Source: Shigella phage ESh22
Sequence record: ON528732
DNA: 64,000 nucleotides
Reading direction: 5' to 3' (one strand)
In this document: positions 1,187-63,843 of the stretch, piece by piece
How positions within the stretch are numbered: the first letter of the stretch is position 1
How the letters are laid out: each line of letters starts with the position of its first letter
The notes under the pieces: generated by a model
The model's input: only the letters and a program-made list of their open reading frames with translations
Databases searched by the model: none
What the model was told of the DNA's origin: nothing
Made by a program: the position numbers and the translations under genes

Positions 1187-1204
1187 TTAACTTCTCCTAG
1201 AAAT

Positions 1205-1229
1205 GAAAAAGGCTCCCGAAGGAGCCTCT
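1205..1229 (-). terminator. intrinsic terminator (GAGGCTCC-TTCG-GGAGCCTC hairpin + U5), placed directly before the RBS of the next gene
   Basis: Minus-strand reading: perfect 8-bp GC-rich stem, tetraloop, then TTTTT; between ORF 1239..1703 and the i-spanin start. Confidence 0.6.
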
Positions 1230-1238
1230 ATATTAACC

Positions 1239-1703
1239 TTAACCTAGAACTTTAGCAAGCACATTTGCAGCCATTGTTGAGGCTTTAGCAGCAGCGTTAA
1301 CCCCAGCTTTAATGGTGCTGTCCTTGATAGCTGATACCGTTGCAGCATCAGTAAACAGATAAGTGGTAGTCTTTTCACCACTTGTGAAGGAAAGCATAAG
1401 AGCAGTTTCCAGATTGAAGGAACGGTATGGTGCTCCCTGTTTTACAATCCCTGCTGCACCAAGTTCTGAAGCCATACCCATATCATAGATGGTCATCAGA
1501 TTTTCTTTGTGGGCAGTTGTAGAACCAACACCTTTAACGTGTTTAGAAACATTCAGCAGAGCACGATACTCACGAATTTCTCCGTCAGCTTTGACGTTTA
1601 CTGCTCGGAAGATTTTACCTTCAAAGTTGTCTTTGATGATACGACGAACAACTTCAGATTTGTTTCCGGTTGCATCGATAGCTACTGTGATAATATTTTG
1701 CAT
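1239..1703 (-). CDS. hypothetical protein (154 aa)
   Basis: ORF track; followed by an intrinsic terminator; no motif recognised. Confidence 0.55.
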   Translation of the reverse strand: MQNIITVAIDATGNKSEVVRRIIKDNFEGKIFRAVNVKADGEIREYRALLNVSKHVKGVGSTTAHKENLMTIYDMGMASELGAAGIVKQGAPYRSFNLETALMLSFTSGEKTTTYLFTDAATVSAIKDSTIKAGVNAAAKASTMAANVLAKVLG

Positions 1704-2967: not shown

Positions 2968-2995
2968 ATTATACACCATCCTGCACATTTTTCAA
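2968..2995 (-). promoter_or_regulatory. sigma70-like promoter (-35 TTGAAA, 16-nt spacer, -10 TATAAT) upstream of the endolysin
   Basis: Minus-strand reading of 2968-2995 gives TTGAAA-N16-TATAAT; lies between the terminator at 2997-3021 and the endolysin RBS. Confidence 0.5.
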
Positions 2996-2996
2996 A

Positions 2997-3021
2997 TAAA
3001 AAAGGCTGCCGAAGCAGCCCT
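2997..3021 (-). terminator. intrinsic terminator (GGCTGC-TTCG-GCAGCC + U6) after rIIB
   Basis: GC stem, UUCG loop, U-tract on minus strand immediately 3' of the ORF ending at 3038. Confidence 0.6.
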
Positions 3022-3037
3022 TTAGGATTCTTACTAA

Positions 3038-4147: not shown

Positions 4148-4182
4148 CTTAATATCTCTCTTTAGTTAATTAACAGTTTCGT

Positions 4183-4211
4183 ATTCTAAGGGGCTTTTCA
4201 GCCCCTGTCAA
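4183..4211 (-). promoter_or_regulatory. promoter-like element with hairpin spacer: TTGACA-GGGGCUGAAAAGCCCC-TTAGAAT
   Basis: Minus-strand reading: consensus -35 TTGACA, 17-nt spacer made entirely of a GGGGCUG/CAGCCCC hairpin, -10-like TAGAAT; in the rIIA-rIIB intergenic gap about 30 nt upstream of the rIIB start. Confidence 0.45.
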
Positions 4212-4217
4212 ACTCTT

Positions 4218-6587: not shown

Positions 6588-6619
6588 AACAGGATTCCTC
6601 TTTGTTGTTTGGTGAGGTA

Positions 6620-6649
6620 ACTATATTCTTTTATAGATACCTCTGTCAA
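6620..6649 (-). promoter_or_regulatory. sigma70-like promoter candidate upstream of rIIA (-35 TTGACA, -10 TATAGT)
   Basis: Minus-strand reading TTGACA-N18-TATAGT about 35 nt upstream of the rIIA ATG. Confidence 0.35.
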
Positions 6650-7164: not shown

Positions 7165-7187
7165 AAAAAGGCTCCCGTAGGAGCCTC
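7165..7187 (-). terminator. intrinsic terminator (GGCTCC-UACG-GGAGCC + U5); element about 45 nt long, near-identical to the one at 1205-1229
   Basis: Hairpin + U-tract on minus strand after the NAMPT-like gene; flanks (TATTATAAG ... AATTTCTGGAGAA-ATG) conserved with the 1205 copy. Confidence 0.6.
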
Positions 7188-7200
7188 TTATAATACTCAG

Positions 7201-9027
7201 TTAGAGTTGTTTGTCAATGTTATTTCGAACATCACGAAGGTTTACATAACCATATGGTTGAGAGTTGCTAAACACCAACTTCAAAGCACATTCTGGATTA
7301 TCCAGTACACCTTCAAACTCTGCAAAGCCAAAGCCGTCTACAGCTTCCAGTTTATCACCGTCACACATAGGAACTACACCACCAAAAGCAGACTTCTTAA
7401 GACCACTGTCAGTTTTAGGGTCTTTTGCCAGCATGATTTCTTCACCGTCCATCTGAGCAAGAGTAGCCTTGACAGCAAATGCAAAGGTATCACGAGTCAG
7501 GTACTGGTAAGTGTATGAACCAACACCAAAGACCACGTTAGAGCTTGCAAAACCTTTGTCAGCAAGACGACCAAGAATCTCATTAGCTCGCTCAAGGGTG
7601 ATAGAATCACCATAGATTAAACCGATGTGCTCATCCAGTACTTTGTAACCTTTACTGTTCACACGACCACCAAAGATGTTGTAGAGAGTTGGGATAGCCC
7701 CATCAATCTCTGCTGTCAGCATACGCTTAACAACAATATTTCCGGTCTTATTAAAATCTTTCAAGTTAACTGTTTCAGCAGTTTCAAAATCTTCTTTATC
7801 AACAACTAACTCATAACCTTCAGAGATAAGCCATGCAGCAAACCCATAACCCATATCCTGCAACTCACAATACTGAATAAGATTCAGGAGTTTATCATTG
7901 TTCGGTGCAATTTCTTTCATATGTTTGTAGAACATACTCTTGGCATTTTCCCACTCAACAGCACGATAACCAGCAACAATGTGAATGGGGTCTCCAGAGT
8001 CTGGACGTATTACCAGTTTACCTTCACGCTTCAGGATAACTTCACGGAGTTCTGGGAGAATCTCTGTAACAGTACGCCAGAAGTTGTAAGTATCTGAAAC
8101 AACACTTGCAATACCAGTTGGATATACGTCTACCAGTAAATGCTCAAAGGTTTTAACCTCACCACGCCAACGTTTTGCATCCAGCAAGCTATCAGACTGC
8201 ATGATGTACTGTGAATGAATATCTTCCTCTGACAAGTCTTTCATATTCCATGAAATGTTTGCGCACATCACAGAGTGTTCAGTAGCTGGTACAGAGTTGC
8301 CGATATCACTTACTTCCATAAACTGACCATAAGCACGTTTAGCAGTGTAGACAGCAGGGAAGCTGTCAGTACCTTTAAAGCTTGTCAGGTGACCTACAGC
8401 GTTAAAAGCATCATCTGTAAAGCCTGACATACCACGCATTGCAAAATCATGACACTGCCAAGGTAAATGGAAGTCATTATCACAGGTTACATCAGCCCAT
8501 TGCTTACAGATGCGTTTGTAGTGTAATGCAATAGTGGCAATCGTAGAAGCTTTCCAAATTTCAGCAGAGAAAGCATCTTCCAGATATCCAGCTACCCAAT
8601 GGAAGCCCTCTACAGTATTCTTGAAGATAATCATTGGAACACGCATTGGAACCACTGTACCCTCTTCTACAGAGTAGACTTCGACTGGCAGATAGCCTAA
8701 ATCGTGAAGTTCTTCCCAATGCTCACGACCAATCGCATCTGCACCGAGAACACCGTTCATGATTTCTAAGATTTCGTCAACAACTTCTTTCTTATCTCGT
8801 TCAAAGAAGGTAGCATTCCAGTGGTCTACTAAGTAATCTTTAACGAAACGTTGAATACCAAAAGCAACTACACCGTCAATATCAAGTGGAGTGTTAAACC
8901 ACTTATCACCACGAGGTGTAAGATTTAGCATCAGATACTGTGTAGCACTTGGGTACTGGTAGATATGGCCAGCTTTGTAAGCATCCGCATTAAGACCTGC
9001 TGGTACTGCATAAACTGATTTAGACAT
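7201..9027 (-). CDS. nicotinamide phosphoribosyltransferase (NAMPT/NadV)-family protein; possibly a nicotinamide ADP-ribose transferase
   Basis: ORF 7201..9069, start trimmed to the ATG at 9027 (MSKSVYAVPAGLNADAYKAGH...) preceded by a GAGAGAGA RBS; about 609 aa, longer than typical NAMPT; family assigned from N-terminal region and overall pattern recalled for NadV/PncB-like proteins. Confidence 0.7.
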   Translation of the reverse strand: MSKSVYAVPAGLNADAYKAGHIYQYPSATQYLMLNLTPRGDKWFNTPLDIDGVVAFGIQRFVKDYLVDHWNATFFERDKKEVVDEILEIMNGVLGADAIGREHWEELHDLGYLPVEVYSVEEGTVVPMRVPMIIFKNTVEGFHWVAGYLEDAFSAEIWKASTIATIALHYKRICKQWADVTCDNDFHLPWQCHDFAMRGMSGFTDDAFNAVGHLTSFKGTDSFPAVYTAKRAYGQFMEVSDIGNSVPATEHSVMCANISWNMKDLSEEDIHSQYIMQSDSLLDAKRWRGEVKTFEHLLVDVYPTGIASVVSDTYNFWRTVTEILPELREVILKREGKLVIRPDSGDPIHIVAGYRAVEWENAKSMFYKHMKEIAPNNDKLLNLIQYCELQDMGYGFAAWLISEGYELVVDKEDFETAETVNLKDFNKTGNIVVKRMLTAEIDGAIPTLYNIFGGRVNSKGYKVLDEHIGLIYGDSITLERANEILGRLADKGFASSNVVFGVGSYTYQYLTRDTFAFAVKATLAQMDGEEIMLAKDPKTDSGLKKSAFGGVVPMCDGDKLEAVDGFGFAEFEGVLDNPECALKLVFSNSQPYGYVNLRDVRNNIDKQL

Positions 9028-9042
9028 AATTTTATCTCTCTC

Positions 9043-9070
9043 AATAGTGGGGCTTTTCAGCCCCTTCAAA
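9043..9070 (-). promoter_or_regulatory. GGGGCUGAAAAGCCCC hairpin element (identical to the core at 4190-4205), no U-tract
   Basis: Exact 16-nt repeat of the hairpin in the rIIB promoter-like element; sits between the Prs-like gene stop and the NAMPT-like gene start. Confidence 0.4.
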
Positions 9071-9075
9071 GTTTA

Positions 9076-10768: not shown

Positions 10769-10796
10769 ATAAAAAGGGAACCTTTTACAGTTCCCT
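10769..10796 (-). terminator. intrinsic terminator (GGGAAC-loop-GUUCCC + U5)
   Basis: Hairpin + U-tract on minus strand between ORF 10809..11120 and ORF 10241..10756. Confidence 0.55.
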
Positions 10797-10808
10797 AATC
10801 ATATACTT

Positions 10809-11120
10809 TTACTGTGTGACTTTCAACACTTTGAAGAAACCTTCTTCACCGATGTTGCTTGTAACGTAATCTGTAGGTTTGATTGAATGGTTCAGACATA
10901 CAATCTTCTTAGCTTTCTTGTCATAAGTCAGCTTAAGTTGTTTTACCTCTTTGTCACTAGCTAGTGACTCATTGTACATCTTTACAGCTTTCTTAAACGG
11001 GATATATTCACCACCAAAAGCTAGAAAACCTGTGCCACAATAATGTGCATTATATTTCTCAACCATAAATTGGCACAGAACTGCAATCTGAATCTTACGA
11101 GTGTTATAAATCTTTTCCAT
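10809..11120 (-). CDS. hypothetical protein (103 aa)
   Basis: ORF track. Confidence 0.45.
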   Translation of the reverse strand: MEKIYNTRKIQIAVLCQFMVEKYNAHYCGTGFLAFGGEYIPFKKAVKMYNESLASDKEVKQLKLTYDKKAKKIVCLNHSIKPTDYVTSNIGEEGFFKVLKVTQ

Positions 11121-13111: not shown

Positions 13112-13153
13112 TAAAAAAGGTAGTGCAAGCCTATCAAGACCTACACTACCTTG
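13112..13153 (-). terminator. intrinsic terminator (long imperfect hairpin + U6) after nrdD
   Basis: AAGGUAGUG...CACUACCUU stem followed by UUUUUU on minus strand, directly 3' of nrdD. Confidence 0.5.
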
Positions 13154-13161
13154 TCAATTAC

Positions 13162-15322: not shown

Positions 15323-15345
15323 AAAAAGGTCTCCGAAGAGACCCT
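15323..15345 (-). terminator. intrinsic terminator (GGGUCUC-UUCG-GAGACC + U5) directly before the nrdD RBS
   Basis: Hairpin + U-tract on minus strand; about 17 nt upstream of the nrdD ATG. Confidence 0.55.
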
Positions 15346-15349
15346 TATT

Positions 15350-15556
15350 TTAATTTTTGTTTAAGAGATTATCAAGGAAGTTTTTAACCTTGGTACTCCA
15401 TCCAAACTGAATGTCTAGAATTTCAATGATTAGCCATACTAGCATAAACCCGAACATTAAACCTTGTTTAAAGTCAATGAACATGTTCAGCAAGAAAATT
15501 ACCCAGAGAAGCATAGGAGCATCTTCTTTGAAGCCTTTAAAGATTTTATCCAGCAT
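15350..15556 (-). CDS. small membrane protein (68 aa)
   Basis: ORF track; two hydrophobic segments. Confidence 0.45.
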   Translation of the reverse strand: MLDKIFKGFKEDAPMLLWVIFLLNMFIDFKQGLMFGFMLVWLIIEILDIQFGWSTKVKNFLDNLLNKN

Positions 15557-17136: not shown

Positions 17137-17191
17137 AGACTCTCCAAAGTTAATTTTAGAGGGTCTTTTACGACCCTCATAGTTATTGAAA

Positions 17192-19444: not shown

Positions 19445-19470
19445 GAAAAGGGTCTCCGAAGAGACCCCTT
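19445..19470 (-). terminator. terminator-like hairpin (GGGGUCUC-UUCG-GAGACCC + U4) before the nrdA RBS
   Basis: GC-rich hairpin with short U-tract on minus strand, about 18 nt upstream of the nrdA ATG. Confidence 0.45.
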
Positions 19471-21072: not shown

Positions 21073-21577
21073 GATTTTCTCTCTCGTTAAGCTTCATGAT
21101 TTTGTTAATACGTTTCTCAGCTTCTTCATAAGTTTCTTTTGTAAGGAACTTGATAGCTGCAATATTGGCATTGTAGAAGAGTCTGAGTTTCGAGTCAATC
21201 CTTTTTGTCATAACATCGAACTTATGTTGGAGATTTGCTTCTCCGTAGACTAATCCACCTCGTGTATAATAGGTTTGCACAATGTAGAAGTCAAACTCTT
21301 TCATACCAAAAGCTTCAATATCTTTCTTAATGTACTCAGAAGAAGTCTGGTAAACCATCCAGTCACTCTCTTTGGTGACAACCTTACGTCTGGTCTTTCC
21401 AGCAACCTTCTTCTTAGTGATACTATTGAACTGTTTTTTACCCAAATAGTACTGACCAGTCTTTTTGCAGTAGACTAGATAAACGAAGCCAAAGTACTTT
21501 GCAGGGTCAATTTCACCACATAATGATACCCAATGTCCGTAAGTAGGGCAATTACCAAAACCTTTAATCTTTATCAT
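21065..21577 (-). CDS. GIY-YIG-like homing endonuclease (tentative)
   Basis: 170 aa; 'GFVYLVYCKKTGQYYLGKK' fits the GIY-(10-11)-YIG spacing; adjacent to an HNH endonuclease. Confidence 0.4.
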   Translation of the reverse strand: MIKIKGFGNCPTYGHWVSLCGEIDPAKYFGFVYLVYCKKTGQYYLGKKQFNSITKKKVAGKTRRKVVTKESDWMVYQTSSEYIKKDIEAFGMKEFDFYIVQTYYTRGGLVYGEANLQHKFDVMTKRIDSKLRLFYNANIAAIKFLTKETYEEAEKRINKIMKLNERENHV

Positions 21578-22110
21578 TCATAAGTTTCTCCGTGATTTGC
21601 AAACTCTCTATGGAGTTCTTCTCTTTTCTTTCTAACAACATTTTCAGCCTCAGCTACAGAATCAAACAGTCCGAGGTGATAGCAAACTTTATTATGTTTA
21701 ACCTGCGCAACCCATCTGCATCTTTGCTTGTGGTAATAGACACCCTTCACACCAGACTTGTTGTCTTTCCTCTTAGTTGCGTTGCAGTTATTATCTGACC
21801 TGCTGCACTCTCTTAAATTGTCGAACCAGTTTTCGTGCCTAATACCGTTCTTATGGTCAACTAATTTAGGTAGGTAACCTTTTATGTATAAAAATGCTAA
21901 CCTGTGTGCTGCGTACCTTTTACCAAAAAGTTTTATATAAACATAGCCGCTATGGTGTTTAACTCCAGCTACAGAGCCAGCTTTAGCCTTACCAGTTCTA
22001 TCTACTAACCAAGTAAAGACCCCTGTTTCGGGGTCATAGTGTAGGTATTCTTTAAGAATCTGCTGAGTTAACATTTGGTGTCCACCCATACTTATCAAAA
22101 GTGAAATCAT
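21574..22110 (-). CDS. HNH homing endonuclease with AP2-type DNA-binding domain
   Basis: 178 aa; 'VDHKNGIRHENWFDNLR' HNH motif; 'GVKGVYYHKQRCRWVAQV...GLFDSVAEAE' AP2-like domain; ORF start overlaps the 3' end of the exonuclease gene, so the true start may be an internal ATG. Confidence 0.7.
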   Translation of the reverse strand: MISLLISMGGHQMLTQQILKEYLHYDPETGVFTWLVDRTGKAKAGSVAGVKHHSGYVYIKLFGKRYAAHRLAFLYIKGYLPKLVDHKNGIRHENWFDNLRECSRSDNNCNATKRKDNKSGVKGVYYHKQRCRWVAQVKHNKVCYHLGLFDSVAEAENVVRKKREELHREFANHGETYE

Positions 22111-23111: not shown

Positions 23112-23143
23112 GAAAAAGCCCTATACGTTCTGTACAGGGCTTT
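23112..23143 (-). terminator. intrinsic terminator (AGCCCU-loop-AGGGCU + U5)
   Basis: Hairpin + U-tract on minus strand between the SSB-like gene and the exonuclease gene. Confidence 0.5.
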
Positions 23144-23160: not shown

Positions 23161-24006
23161 TTAATCTTCAGTATCGAAATCATCATCATCATCCGGTGTT
23201 GGTAGGTCGTCATCGTCATCACCACCTTTATCATCATCAGAATCTTTTGCATCTTCTTCAGAGATTTCACCGTTGTCTTCAACACCTGCGAGACCAAGCA
23301 GTGCCAGTTCGTCTTCATCAAGTTCAGTCTCGGTTGCACCACCAGTACCACCAGTGTATGGAACCAGAGTATCAATGATAAACTGCTCCTGAATTGGCTT
23401 AGTCAGAACGTTACCTTCGAAGGTGTAGAAGTGAGTCGAAAGAATCACACTACCAAAAGAACCATTACCGACTGCAATATCTGGACAGACAACATCGTAA
23501 GTCTTGTCATCGTCATGCTTGTCAGATTTTGCTGCCTTAATTTTCTTCATAGGTTGCTTAACCGCAACACGTTTACCGTTCAGTTCTTCAACCAGCATCA
23601 CAGGAAAACTCTGTTTTGCTGACCATACAGCACCATCTTTGTAAGCTGCTGAACGGCTAACCTTCAGGATGTAATAAGTGTCAGCTTCGAATGGAGGCTC
23701 ACAACCAAACTTCTCTTCAAAGTCATCTGCATCAACAGTCTCTGTAGTGACCTTATCCCAACCATCTGGATTTTTTTTAGACTTGGTGAACTCTTTAAAG
23801 AGCTTGTTACCGTCTTTTGCCAGAATTGAAACGCTGTAATTACAGTCTTTGCCTGGGAAATGTTTGTCTACAGACTTGCCCTTCTGAGGGCGTGGAATAG
23901 TATTCAGGTAGTAGAACCAAACATCTTTCAGCAGGTAACGATAAGTTTCAAGTTCTTTACCGTTGTATTTTTCTACCGGAGATTTCATTTTAACAACTTT
24001 AGACAT
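23161..24006 (-). CDS. candidate single-stranded DNA-binding protein with poly-acidic C-terminal tail
   Basis: 281 aa; C-terminus '...DDDKGGDDDDDLPTPDDDDDFDTED' resembles the acidic tails of T7 gp2.5/T4 gp32-type SSBs; in the replication block. Confidence 0.35.
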   Translation of the reverse strand: MSKVVKMKSPVEKYNGKELETYRYLLKDVWFYYLNTIPRPQKGKSVDKHFPGKDCNYSVSILAKDGNKLFKEFTKSKKNPDGWDKVTTETVDADDFEEKFGCEPPFEADTYYILKVSRSAAYKDGAVWSAKQSFPVMLVEELNGKRVAVKQPMKKIKAAKSDKHDDDKTYDVVCPDIAVGNGSFGSVILSTHFYTFEGNVLTKPIQEQFIIDTLVPYTGGTGGATETELDEDELALLGLAGVEDNGEISEEDAKDSDDDKGGDDDDDLPTPDDDDDFDTED

Positions 24007-24095
24007 TTTAATACCTCTTTCTCAAATTAACTATCAATTCAAATCTTATTGGGAGTACAATCTTACATGCTTCATACCCCCATGTCAAACATTTT

Positions 24096-24233
24096 AAGCA
24101 GCTTTCTTGGCAGCTTTACGAGCAGTCTTACCAGTGCGAACTCGCTTCGTTTCGTAATGTTCAGCAGACTTACCAGCAGTTGCTTTCAGGGAATCACCAA
24201 ATACTGCTTCAAATGCTTTAGAGTGTTTCATTT
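24096..24233 (-). CDS. small basic protein (45 aa)
   Basis: Hand-translated MKHSKAFEAVFGDSLKATAGKSAEHYETKRVRTGKTARKAAKKAA; its ATG overlaps the stop of the upstream ORF (ATGA). Confidence 0.3.
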
Positions 24234-27421: not shown

Positions 27422-27452
27422 AAAAAGCCCCCAATTAAGGAGGCTTGGGGAA
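27422..27452 (-). terminator. intrinsic terminator (CCCCAA-loop-UUGGGG + U5) before the kinase RBS
   Basis: Hairpin + U-tract on minus strand. Confidence 0.5.
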
Positions 27453-27462
27453 AACAATTGTA

Positions 27463-28266
27463 TTAGTGAATCTGGTTAGAGTCCAGTTTTTCTTTTTCAG
27501 AGATAGCCTGAAGAGTCTCAACAAACTCATCACCGAAGTGGATAGCAATTTTCTCTTGGAGTACTGCTGCACCAGTCTGCATAATGACTTCGCGTAGTGC
27601 TTCACCACTTACATCACCAGCAATCTGTTCAACAAACTCGATAGGTGCATCAATCAGTTGAGCGACTTCAAACAGAGCGTGGATACCCATTACAGTGATG
27701 ATTGATGGGACCAATGCGGTAAGTTTAACCTGAATCTCATCAAGTCCATGTTCAGCTTCACGCGCAACAACCTCTTTAAGTTGCTCACTAGTAAGGGCCA
27801 CCATCTCCAGCACTCGCTCAAAGATATCTACGAATCCCCAATCAAGTTGTTCATAGCGTGGAAGTTTATCTTGAACACGCTTCTCAAGAACAGCCATAAC
27901 ACTTGCAATTGAGTTGATAATCAGTTCAAAGGTAGCATCTTCAGAGAAGTTAAGGATTCCTTCTTTCTCTTCCTCAGAAAGAACTTTGAAGTCACCAGTC
28001 TGCATGTTGTCAAAGATATAACCAGCAAAGGCATCTACACCAACCGCTACAGATGCCAGAGCTAGTTTACGGTCACTTAGAAGGAGTTTAACTTGCGAGC
28101 GAAACGATGACTCATCAGAGATATCTCCATTAACCTGATATGATTCAGGCATTACCTTGGAACTAAATGTGTTGCTACGCATTACAATAGCAAGACTTTC
28201 AATTGTATTGAGCATAAAGTTGCTATCAATACCTTTTGAGGACAGCATTTCATTTACAGTAGTCAT
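27463..28266 (-). CDS. hypothetical protein (267 aa)
   Basis: ORF track; first or second gene of the minus-strand transcription unit leaving the divergent region. Confidence 0.5.
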   Translation of the reverse strand: MTTVNEMLSSKGIDSNFMLNTIESLAIVMRSNTFSSKVMPESYQVNGDISDESSFRSQVKLLLSDRKLALASVAVGVDAFAGYIFDNMQTGDFKVLSEEEKEGILNFSEDATFELIINSIASVMAVLEKRVQDKLPRYEQLDWGFVDIFERVLEMVALTSEQLKEVVAREAEHGLDEIQVKLTALVPSIITVMGIHALFEVAQLIDAPIEFVEQIAGDVSGEALREVIMQTGAAVLQEKIAIHFGDEFVETLQAISEKEKLDSNQIH

Positions 28267-28690: not shown

Positions 28691-28949
28691 AATTGCCTCT
28701 ACTAAGTTTCTATAAAGATTTTAATCTCTTATCTTTACGTATTCTATACGTATAACTTTAAAGCTTTTAAAAGACTATTAAAAATCTTTTAAGGGTTTTA
28801 AAGAATCTGTATAGTTAACCTGTAAAGAGAGTCTATTAAGATAAAACCCACTCCGCAAAGATTAACACCTTGTCAAGTGCTTTGTCAACTTGCTTTTTCA
28901 TAAAAATTGGAGTAGGGTATTAAGCAGTATGATTTGAGAGGGAGTTAAA
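28691..28949. promoter_or_regulatory. divergent intergenic control region (259 nt, AT-rich) between the minus-strand early block and the plus-strand polymerase block
   Basis: Strand switch; two TTGTCAA direct repeats 10 nt apart (TTGACA on the minus strand), several TTTAAAG repeats; GAGGGAG RBS before the polymerase ATG. Confidence 0.45.
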
Positions 28950-38135: not shown

Positions 38136-38166
38136 CAAAAAAGGCTCCTTTTTACGGGAGCCTTAG
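38136..38166. terminator. bidirectional intrinsic terminator between convergent td (+) and the minus-strand late genes
   Basis: AAGGCUCC-loop-GGGAGCCUU hairpin flanked by A6 on one side and U-rich sequence on the other. Confidence 0.55.
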
Positions 38167-38737: not shown

Positions 38738-38759
38738 TTAATCACCTTACTTCTTAAGC

Positions 38760-38815
38760 CAAGATGGTGAGAATACCTACTAAGAAATATTAACACCATC
38801 TTGACAGTTAGTCAA
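38760..38815. repeat. inverted repeat (10-bp arms CAAGATGGTG / CACCATCTTG, 24-nt loop) followed by palindrome TTGAC-agtta-GTCAA
   Basis: Perfect 10-bp inverted repeat at 38760-38769 / 38794-38803; palindrome at 38801-38815; intergenic between the tail-fibre stop and the next gene. Confidence 0.5.
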
Positions 38816-38823
38816 CAAGGTAA

Positions 38824-41199: not shown

Positions 41200-41211
41200 T
41201 TATAAATCCTC

Positions 41212-41242
41212 TTTCTAGGGGCTGTGCAGCCCCTTATAAAAT
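41212..41242 (-). promoter_or_regulatory. GGGGCUG-CAC-CAGCCCC hairpin element between the two tail-fibre genes (no U-tract)
   Basis: Same GGGGCUG/CAGCCCC stem as the elements at 4190 and 9049; flanked by a TAGAAAG box and the AAGAGG RBS. Confidence 0.4.
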
Positions 41243-41244
41243 AA

Positions 41245-51106: not shown

Positions 51107-51137
51107 TGTGATTCCTTAAAAGTTATGCTATAAAAAC

Positions 51138-51170
51138 ACAAAAGGGGAAGACCTTTTACAGTCTCCCCCT
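51138..51170 (-). terminator. intrinsic terminator after the tail tube gene (GGGGGAGAC-loop-GGUCUUCCCC + U4)
   Basis: Hairpin + U-tract on minus strand between the tail tube and chaperone genes. Confidence 0.5.
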
Positions 51171-51182
51171 TATTAGGATTTG

Positions 51183-61733: not shown

Positions 61734-61940
61734 TTATTCAGAAACTTCTTCAGATTCCTGTTTAGGTTCTACACCAAACTTTTCATCTACTAAATTAAGA
61801 AGTTTATCCATCGTTGCTTCTTGTGGGTTAATACCAGTTGCAACAATTAAACGTTCAGCCACAGCCATTACAGTTGCTTGAAGCATTTGAGCCTGTTTCT
61901 GAGTTTCATATAGTTCTTTGTAAACATTAGTCTCGTTCAT
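61734..61940 (-). CDS. small protein upstream of terminase (68 aa); possible small terminase-associated protein
   Basis: ORF track; first gene after the terminator that closes the tRNA cluster. Confidence 0.4.
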   Translation of the reverse strand: MNETNVYKELYETQKQAQMLQATVMAVAERLIVATGINPQEATMDKLLNLVDEKFGVEPKQESEEVSE

Positions 61941-61978
61941 TGTATTTCTCCAAAATTAAAGTTATAGTGATTCTCCTG

Positions 61979-62003
61979 AAAAAAGACGGTGCAGAGACCG
62001 TCA
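61979..62003 (-). terminator. intrinsic terminator (GACGGU-CUCUGC-ACCGUC + U6) between the tRNA cluster and the terminase operon
   Basis: Hairpin + UUUUUU on minus strand, downstream of tRNA-Cys. Confidence 0.55.
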
Positions 62004-62160
62004 AGGAGAAACCACAATGTATGCCAGAGACATACTGTATAGGTCTTCCCATAAAGTATAACTCTACAAAAAAGCCCTGTCTAAAAATACTCTCCGGTAG
62101 CGAAAGGGAGAATACTCATAGCAGGGCATATAATAACTTTGAGAGAGATATTATTTAAAT

Positions 62161-62237
62161 TGGAGTATCGGAAGGGACTTGAACCCTTATATACCTGTTT
62201 TGCAGACAGGCGCATAATCCATTTCTGCCACCGACAC
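62161..62237 (-). tRNA. tRNA-Cys (anticodon GCA)
   Basis: Hand-folded cloverleaf: acceptor GUGUCGG/CCGAUAC, anticodon stem CCUGU/ACAGG with loop CUGCAAA, T-arm AAGGG-UUCAAGU-CCCUU, encoded CCA. Confidence 0.75.
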
Positions 62238-62244
62238 ATTAATT

Positions 62245-62337
62245 TGGAGGAAGATACCAGACTTGAACTGGTACGCCGATTTCTCGGTTACTGGCAGTTT
62301 AGCAAACTGCTCCCTTACCTTTTAGGGTTAATCTTCC
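62245..62337 (-). tRNA. tRNA-Ser (anticodon GCU), type II with long variable arm
   Basis: 93 nt; acceptor GGAAGAU/AUCUUCC perfect 7 bp, anticodon loop UUGCUAA, variable-arm hairpin CCGA-GAAA-UCGG, T-arm ACCAG-UUCAAGU-CUGGU, encoded CCA. Confidence 0.75.
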
Positions 62338-62340
62338 AAA

Positions 62341-63066
62341 TTATTTGTTTAGAGCATCTTTCATCTCTGGAGTTGCGATTGTATCAATCACACCAGTTTT
62401 ACAAGCATCATCAAACCAATCTGGTAAGACATTAGCAAGAAAACCGTTAATATTCGTTTTAAGGTAGTCAGCAATCAGGGCTGCTTCATCTGCAATCATC
62501 TGAGCCACTTCATTAGCGTAGGCAGTAATCTTTGCCATACCCTCATTAATCGCTGTAACAGCTTGTGTAGCGAGTTCAGAGATAGTGTCTAGTCCTTTAT
62601 CAATCGCATCTTGTAAATCGCTTAGAACGCCATTTACAGCGTCTATGGATGTATTAATCAAATCCATAGCTTTGTTACCGTACTCTGTAGCAACTCCCAT
62701 GATTCCACTAAACGGTGTACAACCGACTTGTTCACCTGCTGCTCCCATAACGTTAGAGTAACCTTTAGCTACTTGCATACGTTGTGAAAACTCATCTACA
62801 GACTTCTGTCCATAGTCAGTTAAAGTAGTTGTCGTTGAAGTGGTGCTACCAAGGCTTGTTGTAAAGCTGCTTAGTAAGGCAGTTGTCAAGCCAGCAGCAA
62901 TAAGAATTTGCTGGGTAGCTGGGTCTGATACAGAACCAATAGAAGTTACTAATGACTGAGAAGCAGCAACTGTACCACCAAGAACTGCTGCACCAGTAAT
63001 AAGAGGGTTAGAGAACCCGTTACCGGATTTAAGGAGACTGAAAATCTCTTTACCTTGTCCTGTCAT
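62341..63066 (-). CDS. hypothetical Ser/Thr/Ala-rich protein (242 aa) embedded in the tRNA cluster
   Basis: ORF 62341..63138 trimmed to the ATG at 63066 (MTGQGKEIF) because the upstream part overlaps a tRNA-like gene; stop lies 3 nt from tRNA-Ser. Confidence 0.5.
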   Translation of the reverse strand: MTGQGKEIFSLLKSGNGFSNPLITGAAVLGGTVAASQSLVTSIGSVSDPATQQILIAAGLTTALLSSFTTSLGSTTSTTTTLTDYGQKSVDEFSQRMQVAKGYSNVMGAAGEQVGCTPFSGIMGVATEYGNKAMDLINTSIDAVNGVLSDLQDAIDKGLDTISELATQAVTAINEGMAKITAYANEVAQMIADEAALIADYLKTNINGFLANVLPDWFDDACKTGVIDTIATPEMKDALNK

Positions 63067-63091
63067 CTCTTTCATTATGCACCTATAAAAT

Positions 63092-63167
63092 TGGTAGCCC
63101 ATCGGGATTTGAACCCTGTTCTCATGTTTTTCAGACACGCGCTTTAACCATATAAGCTAATTGAGCT
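63092..63167 (-). tRNA. aberrant tRNA-like gene (anticodon-loop candidate CUGAAAA, GAA/Phe-like); possible pseudo-tRNA
   Basis: Clear T-arm/3' end (GGG-UUCAAAU-CCC ... CCA) and anticodon hairpin CGUGU-CUGAAAA-ACAUG, but no hand-fold gives consistent acceptor and D-arm pairing (5' half and 3' half imply different acceptor stems); 5' boundary uncertain. Confidence 0.35.
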
Positions 63168-63174
63168 GTTGAAT

Positions 63175-63251
63175 TGGGGTGACCTACGGGAATCGAACCC
63201 GTATAGACCATGTTCACAGCATGGGTCATTATCCATTTATGATAAGGCCAC
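63175..63251 (-). tRNA. tRNA-His (anticodon GUG)
   Basis: Acceptor GUGGCCU/AGGUCAC, D-stem UCAU/AUGA, anticodon stem CCAUG/CAUGG with loop CUGUGAA, T-arm ACGGG-UUCGAUU-CCCGU, encoded CCA; no encoded G-1. Confidence 0.75.
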
Positions 63252-63282
63252 ATTTAAGGACTCTCGTAAGAACCCTTAGAAG

Positions 63283-63358
63283 TGGCAGCAGCGTAAGGAT
63301 TTGAACCTTAATCGTTCAGCTTCAGAGGCTGGAGCATTGCCAGTTATGCTACACTGCT
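63283..63358 (-). tRNA. tRNA-Gln (anticodon CUG), isotype by anticodon only
   Basis: 76 nt; acceptor AGCAGUG/CGCUGCU, D-stem GCAU/AUGC, anticodon loop CUCUGAA, T-arm UAAGG-UUCAAAU-CCUUA, discriminator G, CCA. Confidence 0.6.
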
Positions 63359-63364
63359 AATATT

Positions 63365-63443
63365 TGGTACTCCATATCGGATTCGAACCGATACATAACA
63401 CAGATTTTAAGTCTGGCCTCTCTGCCAATTGGAGTAATGGAGT
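63365..63443 (-). tRNA. tRNA with anticodon UAA (Leu-like) but short variable region; atypical, isotype uncertain
   Basis: 79 nt; acceptor ACUCCAU/AUGGAGU perfect 7 bp, T-arm AUCGG-UUCGAAU-CCGAU, anticodon loop CUUAAAA; 7-nt variable region instead of the long arm expected for Leu. Confidence 0.5.
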
Positions 63444-63445
63444 AT

Positions 63446-63521
63446 TGGCGGGGGATGTTGGAATTGAACCAACTTCTTCGATTTCAAAGACCGAGGTTTT
63501 AACCTTGTAAACTAATCCCCT
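63446..63521 (-). tRNA. tRNA-Gln (anticodon UUG)
   Basis: 76 nt; acceptor AGGGGAU/AUCCCCC with G73 discriminator (as recalled for E. coli tRNA-Gln), D-stem GUUU/AAAC, anticodon loop CUUUGAA, T-arm GUUGG-UUCAAUU-CCAAC, CCA. Confidence 0.7.
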
Positions 63522-63747
63522 AACGAACTCTTGTCAGGACATATGCGTTATTACACGTATCCTGATTTTCTGGTAATAGCGTTTCAAATATGATTTGATT
63601 AAATTCAATTCCTGCAAAACCATGAACAACCTTCATAGCTGCTATTGGGTCACATTTCCAACCTACAAGAATGAAGTCAGTGTCCCCAACTTGTGTTGTT
63701 TCAATCTTGTCAGCATCTTTATGCTTTTCAATAATGAGTTTACGCAT
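63520..63747 (-). CDS. hypothetical protein (75 aa) between tRNA genes
   Basis: ORF track; GAAGG RBS upstream of the ATG at 63747; stop abuts the 5' end of tRNA-Gln(UUG). Confidence 0.45.
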   Translation of the reverse strand: MRKLIIEKHKDADKIETTQVGDTDFILVGWKCDPIAAMKVVHGFAGIEFNQIIFETLLPENQDTCNNAYVLTRVR

Positions 63748-63766
63748 ATAATTACCTTCTAGTAAT

Positions 63767-63843
63767 TGGTGCAGAATAAGGGATTCGAACCCCTAACAAA
63801 CAACTTCGTAGGCTGCTGCTCTATCCGTTTGAACTAATTCTGC
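63767..63843 (-). tRNA. tRNA-Arg (anticodon ACG)
   Basis: Acceptor GCAGAAU/AUUCUGC perfect 7 bp, D-stem GUUC/GAGC, anticodon loop CUACGAA, T-arm AGGGG-UUCGAAU-CCCUU, CCA. Confidence 0.75.

Follow-up and report, generated by a model that had tools for sequence, protein, structure and literature searches.

Terminator hairpins, some abutted by conserved promoter-like sequences, as probable composite cassettes and attenuators in a compact Felix O1-like phage genome

Introduction

In T4-like phages, the intergenic elements called PeSLs combine a σ70-like promoter, a stem-loop (often GGGG...CCCC) placed in one of five registers relative to the -35 and -10 boxes, and a Shine-Dalgarno (SD) sequence (PMC2839356; PMC4122927). 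PeSLs are repeated in hyperplastic regions and mediate the shuffling of open reading frames (ORFs) (Arbiol et al. 2010, PMC2839356; Comeau et al. 2014, PMC4122927). For phage Felix O1, Table 2 of the genome paper lists Rho-independent terminators, and the account given with them states that the route past these terminators, by read-through or from downstream promoters, is unknown (Whichard et al. 2010, Viruses 2:710, PMC3185647). A later paper on a Felix O1-like phage gives only counts, 42 predicted promoters and 20 predicted terminators. Here we describe hairpin elements in a 64,000-nucleotide (nt) stretch of Shigella phage ESh22 (sequence record ON528732), hereafter the window, which belongs to a Felix O1-like myovirus of the Ounavirinae, genus Mooglevirus. 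An earlier note on this DNA had listed ten hairpins with a U-tract shortly before start codons, at 1205, 7165, 10769, 13112, 15323, 19445, 23112, 27422, 51138 and 61979, and these coordinates serve below as site names. Our analysis indicates that the window probably combines two uses of such hairpins: composite promoter/terminator/SD cassettes, and promoter-less attenuators.

Phage T7 has an internal attenuating terminator, Tφ, after gene 10, behind a highly expressed structural gene. C(UUCG)G hairpins were reportedly first noticed in the intercistronic regions of T4. Both have a likeness in the window. Site 51138 is placed as Tφ is, after the tail-tube gene and before the chaperone and tape-measure genes, and this position is kept in distant relatives. 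It differs from Tφ in that the polymerase here is the host enzyme and attenuation is a prediction. As in T4, stable C(UNCG)G hairpins stand between cistrons, with UUCG at 1205, 15323, 19445 and a further site, 3023, and UACG at 7165. In contrast to those of T4, each C(UNCG)G hairpin in the window has a T-run, so that it is also terminator-like; the other sites have loops of 5-6 nt.

Judged by sequence, six of the ten sites are already published as orthologous Felix O1 terminators. Felix O1 t5, 'ggctccttcgggagcctttttcattt', is identical to window positions 1206-1229 (PMC3185647), and the GenBank records of wV8 and KhF3 annotate the same element as 'terminator'. The Felix O1 elements t124, t116, t111, t104 and t64 are orthologues of 10769, 15323, 19445, 23112 and 51138, and t2, t76 and t79/80 are orthologues of elements at 3023, 41200 and 38141. 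Orthologues of 7165, 13112, 27422 and 61979 are not among the Table 2 entries compared. The abutting -35/-10 pairs and the paralogous cassette family described below are seen here and are not noted for Felix O1 in the terminator account of that paper (PMC3185647).

Results

Terminator hairpins in excess over shuffled sequence

All ten hairpins and their T-runs are present on the minus strand, as the earlier note had reported, and each of its coordinates marks the last T within 1-2 nt. Their minimum free energies lie between -8.4 and -23.9 kcal/mol; relative to dinucleotide shuffles, the z-scores span -2.0 to -6.3 (Table 1). The window was scanned for stems of at least 6 bp with at least 4 G-C pairs and a T4 run, using block shuffles as the null. 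This strict scan returned 15 elements against 1.5 +/- 1.2 in the shuffles, an excess of about 10-fold. Eleven of the 15 lie wholly in non-coding DNA, and one more (61985-62002) falls within a 41-aa ORF call that is doubtful; these twelve have the orientation of the genes beside them. The scan detects every one of the ten sites and, in addition, 2998-3023 and a bidirectional element at 38141-38164, two elements absent from the earlier note's list. Across these sites the stems are 6-16 bp long with 4-6 G-C pairs and loops of 4-6 nt. T-runs of 4-6 nt follow directly 3' of each stem, on the coding strand only except at 38141-38164.

Such hairpins could be attributed to chance and composition, with AT-rich spacers holding occasional GC palindromes that have no function. 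A looser terminator scan would fit, as it shows no overall enrichment in the window (18 vs 11.3, 13 vs 12.7 and 14 vs 11.4); its strongest matches are all the sites described here. The strict-scan excess, the intergenic and co-oriented placement of 12 of its 15 elements, and conservation from Mooglevirus to Felixounavirus with compensatory changes all speak against chance, and we regard this explanation as almost certainly wrong. By structure and T-run, the ten elements are genuine Rho-independent terminator hairpins, at which transcripts are predicted to end.

Placement next to start codons in short spacers

The gene map was obtained by transferring the annotation of Shigella phage ESh21 (ON528731) and checking each coding sequence (CDS), which gave 92 genes and 28 spacers of at least 15 nt. 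Non-coding DNA makes up 5.2% of the window. The genes lie mostly on the minus strand. An early/middle array runs from ~28.7 kb down to 1 and includes primase/helicase, exonuclease, nrdA/B/D/G, phosphoribosyl pyrophosphate (PRPP) synthetase, nadV and rIIA/B; a structural array occupies the stretch from ~62 kb to 38.8 kb.

Distances to the ATG, measured from the last T, are 19, 17, 14, 15, 16, 19, 14 and 17 nt at the first eight sites and 33 and 38 nt at 51138 and 61979. The range of 15-45 nt given by the earlier note therefore stands, and the 15-25 nt of its title applies to eight sites and fails at 51138 and 61979. Its ribosome-binding site (RBS) between U-tract and ATG is also found, as a GGAG/AGGA/GAGG motif 8-12 nt upstream of each ATG. 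The spacers that house the terminators are 43-76 nt long, and the hairpin with its T-run (25-40 nt) and the SD-ATG segment (~15 nt) almost fill them. The terminators stand close to the start codons because these spacers must hold both terminator and SD, a matter of genome compaction. Close placement is not in itself a sign of a special terminator-RBS module, since any terminator in a spacer of 43-76 nt must adjoin the RBS.

Promoter-like sequences abut several stems

A major difference between the sites is the sequence directly upstream of the stem. At 1205 and 7165 the earlier note had taken a 'TAtTATAaG' block as part of the terminator/RBS cassette. This block reads instead as a -10 hexamer (TAnnAT) with an A-tract at the stem base, and a conserved -35 stands 16-17 nt upstream. 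The A-tract pairs with the U-tract at the stem base. Four of 11 hairpins have a σ70 match of at least 9/12 with the -10 ending 0-10 nt before the stem, compared with 2.6% of random minus-strand positions (binomial P = 1.3e-4). Of the five 11/12 promoter matches in the first 20 kb, four fall in these spacers.

Orthologous spacers were compared in Felix O1 and seven relatives from IMG/VR, with counts given as distinct sequences. The abutting promoter is retained in 8/8 at 7165, 7/7 at 10769 and 7/8 at 15323. At 7165, all eight genomes compared, Felix O1 among them, share ATTGACA and TAT.AT without change, and nearly every genome differs in the five non-coding bases that separate stop codon and -10. 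The possibility that the -10-like boxes are mere AT-rich stop-codon context was rejected, because TAnnAT stands in a fixed register while neighbouring non-coding bases vary. In the same set of spacers, an abutting promoter is never present at 19445, 23112, 51138, 61979, 13112 or 3023. At 3023 the order is reversed, terminator then promoter. A σ70-type -35/-10 pair, predicted to act as a promoter, is thus found against the stem at 7165, 10769 and 15323 and is conserved across genera.

Hairpin structure is under selection

Several stems have changed in sequence while keeping their pairing. At 19445 the window stem is GGGUCUC/GAGACCC and that of Felix O1 is GAGCCUC/GAGGCUC, with two pairs changed on both sides and none broken. 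Changes that preserve pairing, either compensatory or wobble-compatible, occur at 13112 (in the relative L007), 6588, 23112 and 61979. At 51138, relatives with ~45% protein identity keep a hairpin with T6 at the tail-tube/chaperone junction, and the stem sequence is different. This last comparison uses single-sequence folds, as column-wise covariation that includes the distant relatives is unreliable owing to poor alignment. The compensatory pairs at 19445, the pairing-compatible changes elsewhere and the turnover of the stem with its position kept at 51138 indicate that the hairpin structure is under selection.

Alternatively, the hairpins could be mainly RNA stability or processing elements, with stable C(UNCG)G and GNRA-type hairpins shielding 3' ends, and maybe 5' ends after cleavage (a role as 5' stabilisers was also raised in the earlier note), and with termination secondary. 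C(UUCG)G or C(UACG)G loops occur in five hairpins (1205, 3023, 7165, 15323 and 19445), and conserved GC hairpins at 4148-4217, 9028-9075, 17137-17191 and 41200-41244 lack a T-run and so are not classical terminators. All ten sites, however, have the T-run that defines a terminator, on the coding strand only, and no processing sites or nuclease motifs were identified in the analysis. Stability and termination functions are, moreover, not mutually exclusive. As the main function of the ten sites, stability or processing is improbable.

Probable composite cassettes and promoter-less attenuators

We propose that the sites fall into two classes. Class 1 comprises 7165, 10769 and 15323, weakly 1205, and possibly 27422 and 13112, and would consist of composite promoter/terminator/SD cassettes. 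In each, the upstream gene would contain at its 3' end the -35 of a host σ70-type promoter, and the -10 of this promoter would directly adjoin the stem. Polymerase arriving from upstream would transcribe the entire hairpin and terminate. Polymerase recruited at the cassette would start inside the 5' arm, and its transcript, without a functional terminator, would continue through the U-tract and the SD into the next gene. Such a cassette would insulate neighbouring transcription units from each other and start expression anew. At 27422, the entire hairpin would remain in the 5' leader.

This working can be modelled from the position of the -10. A +1 taken 6-8 nt after it falls in the 5' arm at 1205, 7165, 10769 and 15323, and the RNA remaining from such a start folds at only about -2 to -5 kcal/mol, except for -9.2 with the most upstream start at 7165, where the complete hairpins reach -12 to -17. 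We infer that new transcripts would start inside the 5' arm and lack the terminator. Class 2 (19445, 23112, 51138 and 61979) would be promoter-less internal attenuators, with downstream genes that depend on partial read-through. The earlier note had proposed read-through as a general route to the downstream genes. At the class 2 sites, where no promoter is present, read-through or some other route is needed, and read-through is the simplest explanation. At 7165, 10769, 15323 and, weakly, 1205, the conserved -35/-10 pairs make re-initiation more likely than read-through. In Felix O1, expression classes from reverse transcription PCR (RT-PCR), a crude assay, differ across t5, t104, t116 and t64.

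Read-through could also account for all ten sites, as leaky terminators in long polycistronic transcripts that lower expression stepwise, with no internal promoters. Four to six sites lack a recognisable promoter (the four of class 2, and 13112 without a good -10), and essential genes follow promoter-less sites: nrdA, the exonuclease gene, the tail chaperone and tape-measure genes, and terminase. The short T-runs of 4-6 nt fit partial efficiency, and the place after the tail-tube gene is the classic attenuator position, kept in distant relatives. What argues against leakiness alone is the conservation, at 7165, 10769 and 15323, of -35/-10 pairs whose register relative to the stem is fixed, and the presence of strong promoter-like sites in neighbouring spacers (2968-2995, 4183-4211 and 6620-6649). 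Nine serial terminators over a 28-kb array without re-initiation would also be expected to leave very little distal transcript. We consider leaky terminators throughout to be unlikely, with a chance that is still appreciable.

Several points weigh against composite cassettes. The promoter criterion used above is reached at 10.8% of gene starts (all starts, these sites included), against which the enrichment at hairpins is smaller. The 1205 promoter is weak, at 8/12 in the window, and is retained in 3/5 distinct orthologue sequences with the rest at 8/12; that at 27422 is kept in 2/5 only. Since the -35 boxes lie within coding sequence, they may owe part of their conservation to protein constraint. 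No covariation evidence comes from the hairpins at 1205, 7165, 10769 and 15323 themselves, as these do not vary. At 7165, a +1 at the G six nt after the -10 would leave a hairpin of -9.2 kcal/mol with U5, which could still terminate. The Felix O1 RT-PCR classes, from the same crude assay, do not change across the orthologues of 7165 (ORF129/130) and 10769 (ORF124/125). For Ounavirinae, a literature search found no mapping of RNA 3' ends or transcription start sites, so that termination, promoter activity and +1 positions are all predictions. With both sides considered, composite cassettes together with promoter-less attenuators are still the probable arrangement.

A paralogous cassette family

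The earlier note had described the blocks at 1205 and 7165 as near-identical and as a duplicated cassette, and both descriptions are borne out. From the -10-like box to the ATG the two share 44 of 53 aligned columns (83%), and they are members of a family with three copies per genome. The third paralogue stands after the lysin gene, just outside the window (4999-5047 of L001, a locus of the same genome type). A 52-nt cassette query gave 822 matches across 311 phage records, typically three per genome. The three GGCUCC cassettes have paralogue-specific loops (UUCG vs UACG) that are kept in this phage and in Felix O1. Recent gene conversion between the 1205 and 7165 copies was rejected, because each copy has a loop of its own that is retained in both genera. 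Together with the lysin-gene copy, these two are probably old paralogues held by purifying selection. Stem families in the window are small: GGCUCC occurs three times, GGGUCUC twice and GGGGCU three times.

Four observations accompany the family. In GenBank record GU169904.1 ('Staphylococcus phage SA1'), the Felix O1-type cassette occurs three times, at 93.5% identity, an unexpected result for a Staphylococcus phage that suggests a mislabelled or chimeric record. In some relatives, ORFs of ~60-70 aa are inserted between the cassette SD/ATG and the downstream gene, at the 7165 orthologue in L006, L007, L009 and L010 and at the 1205 orthologue in L011; they use the cassette's own RBS and are absent from the window. 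A known riboswitch, leader or small RNA was considered as an identity for the cassettes and rejected, because an Rfam scan of the window matches seven tRNAs at 62.1-63.9 kb and nothing else. Pfam finds no domain in the genes that flank the 1205 and 7165 cassettes, and no functional link between the two copies is therefore drawn.

Likeness to PeSLs

The cassettes share several features with PeSLs. A σ70-like -35/-10 pair, present here at some of the sites, goes together in both with a GC stem-loop in variable register and an SD. Repetition among small ORFans, as known for PeSLs, is seen in the region next to the window described below, whereas the families inside the window are small. GGGG...CCCC stems are also common to both, here at 4148, 9028 and 41200 and in cassettes outside the window. 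The stem stands between the boxes at 4148, encloses the -10 at 6588 and 38738, and follows just after the -10 at 7165, 10769 and 15323. The promoter feature of PeSLs is conserved at these last three sites, recurs at 4183-4211, 6620-6649 and 2968-2995, is weak at 1205 and lacks conservation at 27422, and is absent at 19445, 23112, 51138 and 61979. Unlike PeSLs, the cassettes belong to Ounavirinae, not to a T4-like lineage, and they have no sequence homology to published PeSLs; in T4-like Aeromonas phages only the generic hairpin core matches the cassette. The ten sites also differ in lying mostly among conserved nucleotide-metabolism and structural genes instead of a hyperplastic region, and in that most stems are unique, with a clear T-run. 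In a full-text literature search, 'PeSLs' appeared in papers on T4-like phages, one cyanophage and a few general phage papers, and in none on Felix O1-like phages. By analogy of layout, the cassettes are best taken as a PeSL analogue and not as a member by descent.

The clearest PeSL-like family lies in an ORFan region just beyond window position 1 (12371-18308 of L001), with ~10 spacers of 63-88 nt. Across L001 and the loci L056-L061, PeSL-like cassettes in this region number 14-18. Its cassette has the form TTTACA; AAAGTGCTTTACATGGGG-loop-AGCCCCAGATAAAGA...CCTAAACTGGAGA...ATG, with a GGGG...CCCC stem-loop and CCTAAACTGGAGA as the SD block. This block served as a marker for units in Felix O1 and ten relatives. 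Those more closely related have 9-18 marked units each, and they differ by whole cassette-plus-ORF units. The unit order is D G B C H J A E N F O I K L in L056 and D C H J A E F I K L in L058, and L059 and L060 have the extra units P, Q and S. In L061, unit B is tandemly duplicated with the junction inside cassette sequence, and the cassette between D and C in L058 is a mosaic of two L056 cassettes.

These differences raise the possibility that the cassettes are primarily recombination linkers, with copy identity kept as homology patches for gene shuffling by the PeSL mechanism and transcription signals incidental. The whole-unit differences, the tandem duplication and the mosaic cassette all fit, as does the gain or loss of small ORFs or HNH genes directly beside the 1205, 7165 and 9028 cassettes. 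The three GGCUCC cassettes, however, keep paralogue-specific loops, so there has been no recent exchange, and unique stems prevail among the ten sites. Beside the 1205 and 7165 cassettes, the indels adjoin a cassette at just one end and are not flanked by two, which counts against a linker function and also against our own reading. A primary role in recombination is highly improbable. For the ten sites, composite cassettes and attenuators are retained as the more probable account.

A second class of hairpins, without a T-run, includes two further members (about 24000-24100 and 38738-38823) beside the four named above. Several stand between or around the -35 and -10 of strong promoter-like sites, for example TTGACA-[GGGGCTGAAAAGCCCC]-TAGAAT at 4183-4211, and the 10-bp stem at 38738-38823 encloses TAATAT. 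At 41200 the stem is kept and the loop is variable across ~20 relatives. In Felix O1, L009 and L010, a different HNH gene takes the place of the 9028 hairpin spacer.

A putative leader at 61979

Site 61979 belongs to a ~170-nt non-coding block between tRNA-Cys and the first gene of the structural module, which includes 61980-62125 (minus strand). In order, the block holds a long hairpin with T6, the 3' arm of which overlaps TAGACA-17-TATACT (62083-62055, 10/12), then a small hairpin, then the 61979 hairpin with T6. It is nearly invariant in 23 distinct sequences, and the segment after the T-run and the following ORF vary. A TerL-based search for distant relatives returned only genomes with at least 95% TerL identity, which limits the depth of the comparison. 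One compensatory change is found (CTCC/GGAG to CTTC/GAAG). The annotated 41-aa ORF 61927-62052 is probably spurious.

The block thus has the layout of a putative promoter, a leader and a terminator before the late operon, with the promoter-like sequence ending at 62055 and the hairpin and T6 at 62002-61979. In lambda pR'-tR'/Q and HK022 put, a promoter is likewise followed by a terminator within ~50-200 nt before the late operon. By this likeness, 61979 could serve the late structural operon as its leader terminator, and late expression and passage of terminators such as 51138 could need an antitermination device, either a protein or a cis-RNA loaded at the leader. We consider this quite unlikely. 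If true, it would explain how phages of the Felix O1 type, which have neither a sigma factor nor a polymerase of their own, time their transcription, a question raised in 2010.

Other features of the window

The first 8 kb of the window are 99.9% identical to ESh21, and the whole window is 95-99.6% identical to it. Besides small indels, a ~500-bp segment at 21,583-22,081 is present in the window and absent from ESh21. This is explained by a 178-aa ORF at 21574-22110 (minus strand) with an HNH_3 endonuclease domain (Pfam, E = 1.9e-10) and a weak AP2 match; the HNH gene ORF106 of Felix O1 stands at the equivalent position. At 62164-63843 (minus strand), ESh21 CDS calls lie over some tRNA genes (for example, a CDS overlapping tRNA-Arg) and are probably over-predictions. 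A 259-nt divergent intergenic region at 28691-28949 separates two early arrays. Words resembling CTTTTAA/TTTTAAAG recur in this AT-rich region, which also contains a TTGTCAAGTGCTTTGTCAAC repeat and is presumed to be the site of divergent early promoters and possibly also of other control elements. The 73-nt 'spacer' at 766-838 has no hairpin, promoter or SD-like features and is overlapped by a longer ORF (676-945), so that CDS 676-765 of the ESh21 annotation may be truncated relative to the window. At 27422 the hairpin is conserved and the sequence upstream is not.

Table 1. Positions of hairpin, promoter-like and SD features in the window
Feature	Position	Strand	Remarks
Terminator AGAGGCUCC-UUCG-GGAGCCUUU + T5, C(UUCG)G tetraloop	1206..1229	-	-14.8 kcal/mol, z -4.2; Felix O1 't5' orthologue
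Weak σ70-like promoter TTGCTA-17-TAATAT (8/12), abuts 1205 stem	1230..1258	-	-10 in relatives: TATTAT, TATGAT or TAAGAT
SD segment CAUUUCUAGGAGAAGUUAA up to ATG at 1186	1187..1205	-	
Terminator AAAGGGCUGC-UUCG-GCAGCCUUU + T6	2998..3023	-	-15.1 kcal/mol; Felix O1 t2 orthologue
σ70-like promoter TTGAAA-16-TATAAT (11/12), directly downstream of 3023 terminator	2968..2995	-	-10 invariant in relatives
σ70-like promoter TTGACA-17-TAGAAT (11/12), hairpin GGGGCU-GAAA-AGCCCC within its spacer	4183..4211	-	Classic PeSL layout; conserved in Felix O1
σ70-like promoter TTGACA-18-TATAGT (11/12), enclosed by hairpin	6620..6649	-	Hairpin with compensatory changes in relatives
Terminator AAGAGGCUCC-UACG-GGAGCCUUUU + T5, paralogue of 1205 element	7165..7189	-	-16.6 kcal/mol, z -5.2; invariant in 8 genomes
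σ70-like promoter TTGACA-16-TATTAT (11/12)	7190..7217	-	-10 ends at first stem base; -35 in 3' end of nadV CDS
Terminator AGGGAACU-GUAAAA-GGUUCCCU + T5	10771..10796	-	-11.8 kcal/mol; Felix O1 t124 orthologue
σ70-like promoter TTGAAA-17-TATGAT (10/12), abuts stem	10798..10826	-	
Long terminator hairpin, 16 bp + T6	13113..13152	-	-23.9 kcal/mol, z -6.3
TTGACA abutting 13112 5' arm	13152-13157	-	Poor -10 only (TAGGCT), in loop
Terminator AAGGGUCUC-UUCG-GAGACCUU + T5, upstream of nrdD	15323..15346	-	-12.3 kcal/mol; Felix O1 t116 orthologue
σ70-like promoter TTGATA-17-TAAAAT (10/12)	15347..15375	-	-10 overlaps upstream stop codon, ends 3 nt before the G-rich core of the stem
Terminator AAGGGGUCUC-UUCG-GAGACCCUU + T4, upstream of nrdA, no promoter	19446..19470	-	-15.6 kcal/mol; Felix O1 t111 orthologue
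Terminator hairpin 12 bp + T5, upstream of exonuclease gene, no promoter	23113..23143	-	-17.8 kcal/mol; Felix O1 t104 orthologue
Terminator AAGCCUCC-UUAAUU-GGGGGCUU + T5, upstream of deoxynucleoside monophosphate (dNMP) kinase gene	27422..27446	-	-13.4 kcal/mol, z -2.0
Promoter-like TGGACT-17-TACAAT (9/12), ends 10 nt before stem	27457..27485	-	Not conserved beyond close relatives
Bidirectional terminator between convergent genes, GGCUCC/GGAGCC stem family	38141..38164	.	Felix O1 t79/t80 orthologue
Terminator hairpin 12 bp + UUUUGUGUUUUU, tail-tube/chaperone junction, no promoter	51132..51171	-	Felix O1 t64 orthologue
Hairpin GACGGU-CUCUGC-ACCGUC + T6, in conserved leader before structural operon, 38 nt before ATG	61979..62002	-	-8.4 kcal/mol
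Long hairpin + T6 after tRNA-Cys; 3' arm overlaps promoter-like TAGACA-17-TATACT (10/12)	62055..62125	-	

Discussion

By sequence, the hairpins are intrinsic terminators of an ordinary kind, and for the type phage most have been published before; they represent no new kind of signal or mechanism. What appears to be new is the presence, at about four sites, of conserved overlapping promoter-like sequences with a predicted start in the terminator arm, and the PeSL-like behaviour of cassettes in this phage group.

Felix O1-type phages are widely used in the typing of Salmonella and E. coli, in biocontrol and in therapy, and their transcription programme is unmapped. For about half of the sites in the window, overlapping conserved promoters of the host type would give a partial answer to the 2010 question of how the terminators are passed. 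The analysis also singles out the sites that still require read-through. The cassettes bear on annotation, since gene boundaries, the recognition of spurious small ORFs and the definition of transcription units depend on them, and in engineering they would offer natural, insulated insertion points. The comparison with PeSLs suggests that composite promoter/terminator cassettes bounding gene-sized indels are not restricted to T4-like phages.

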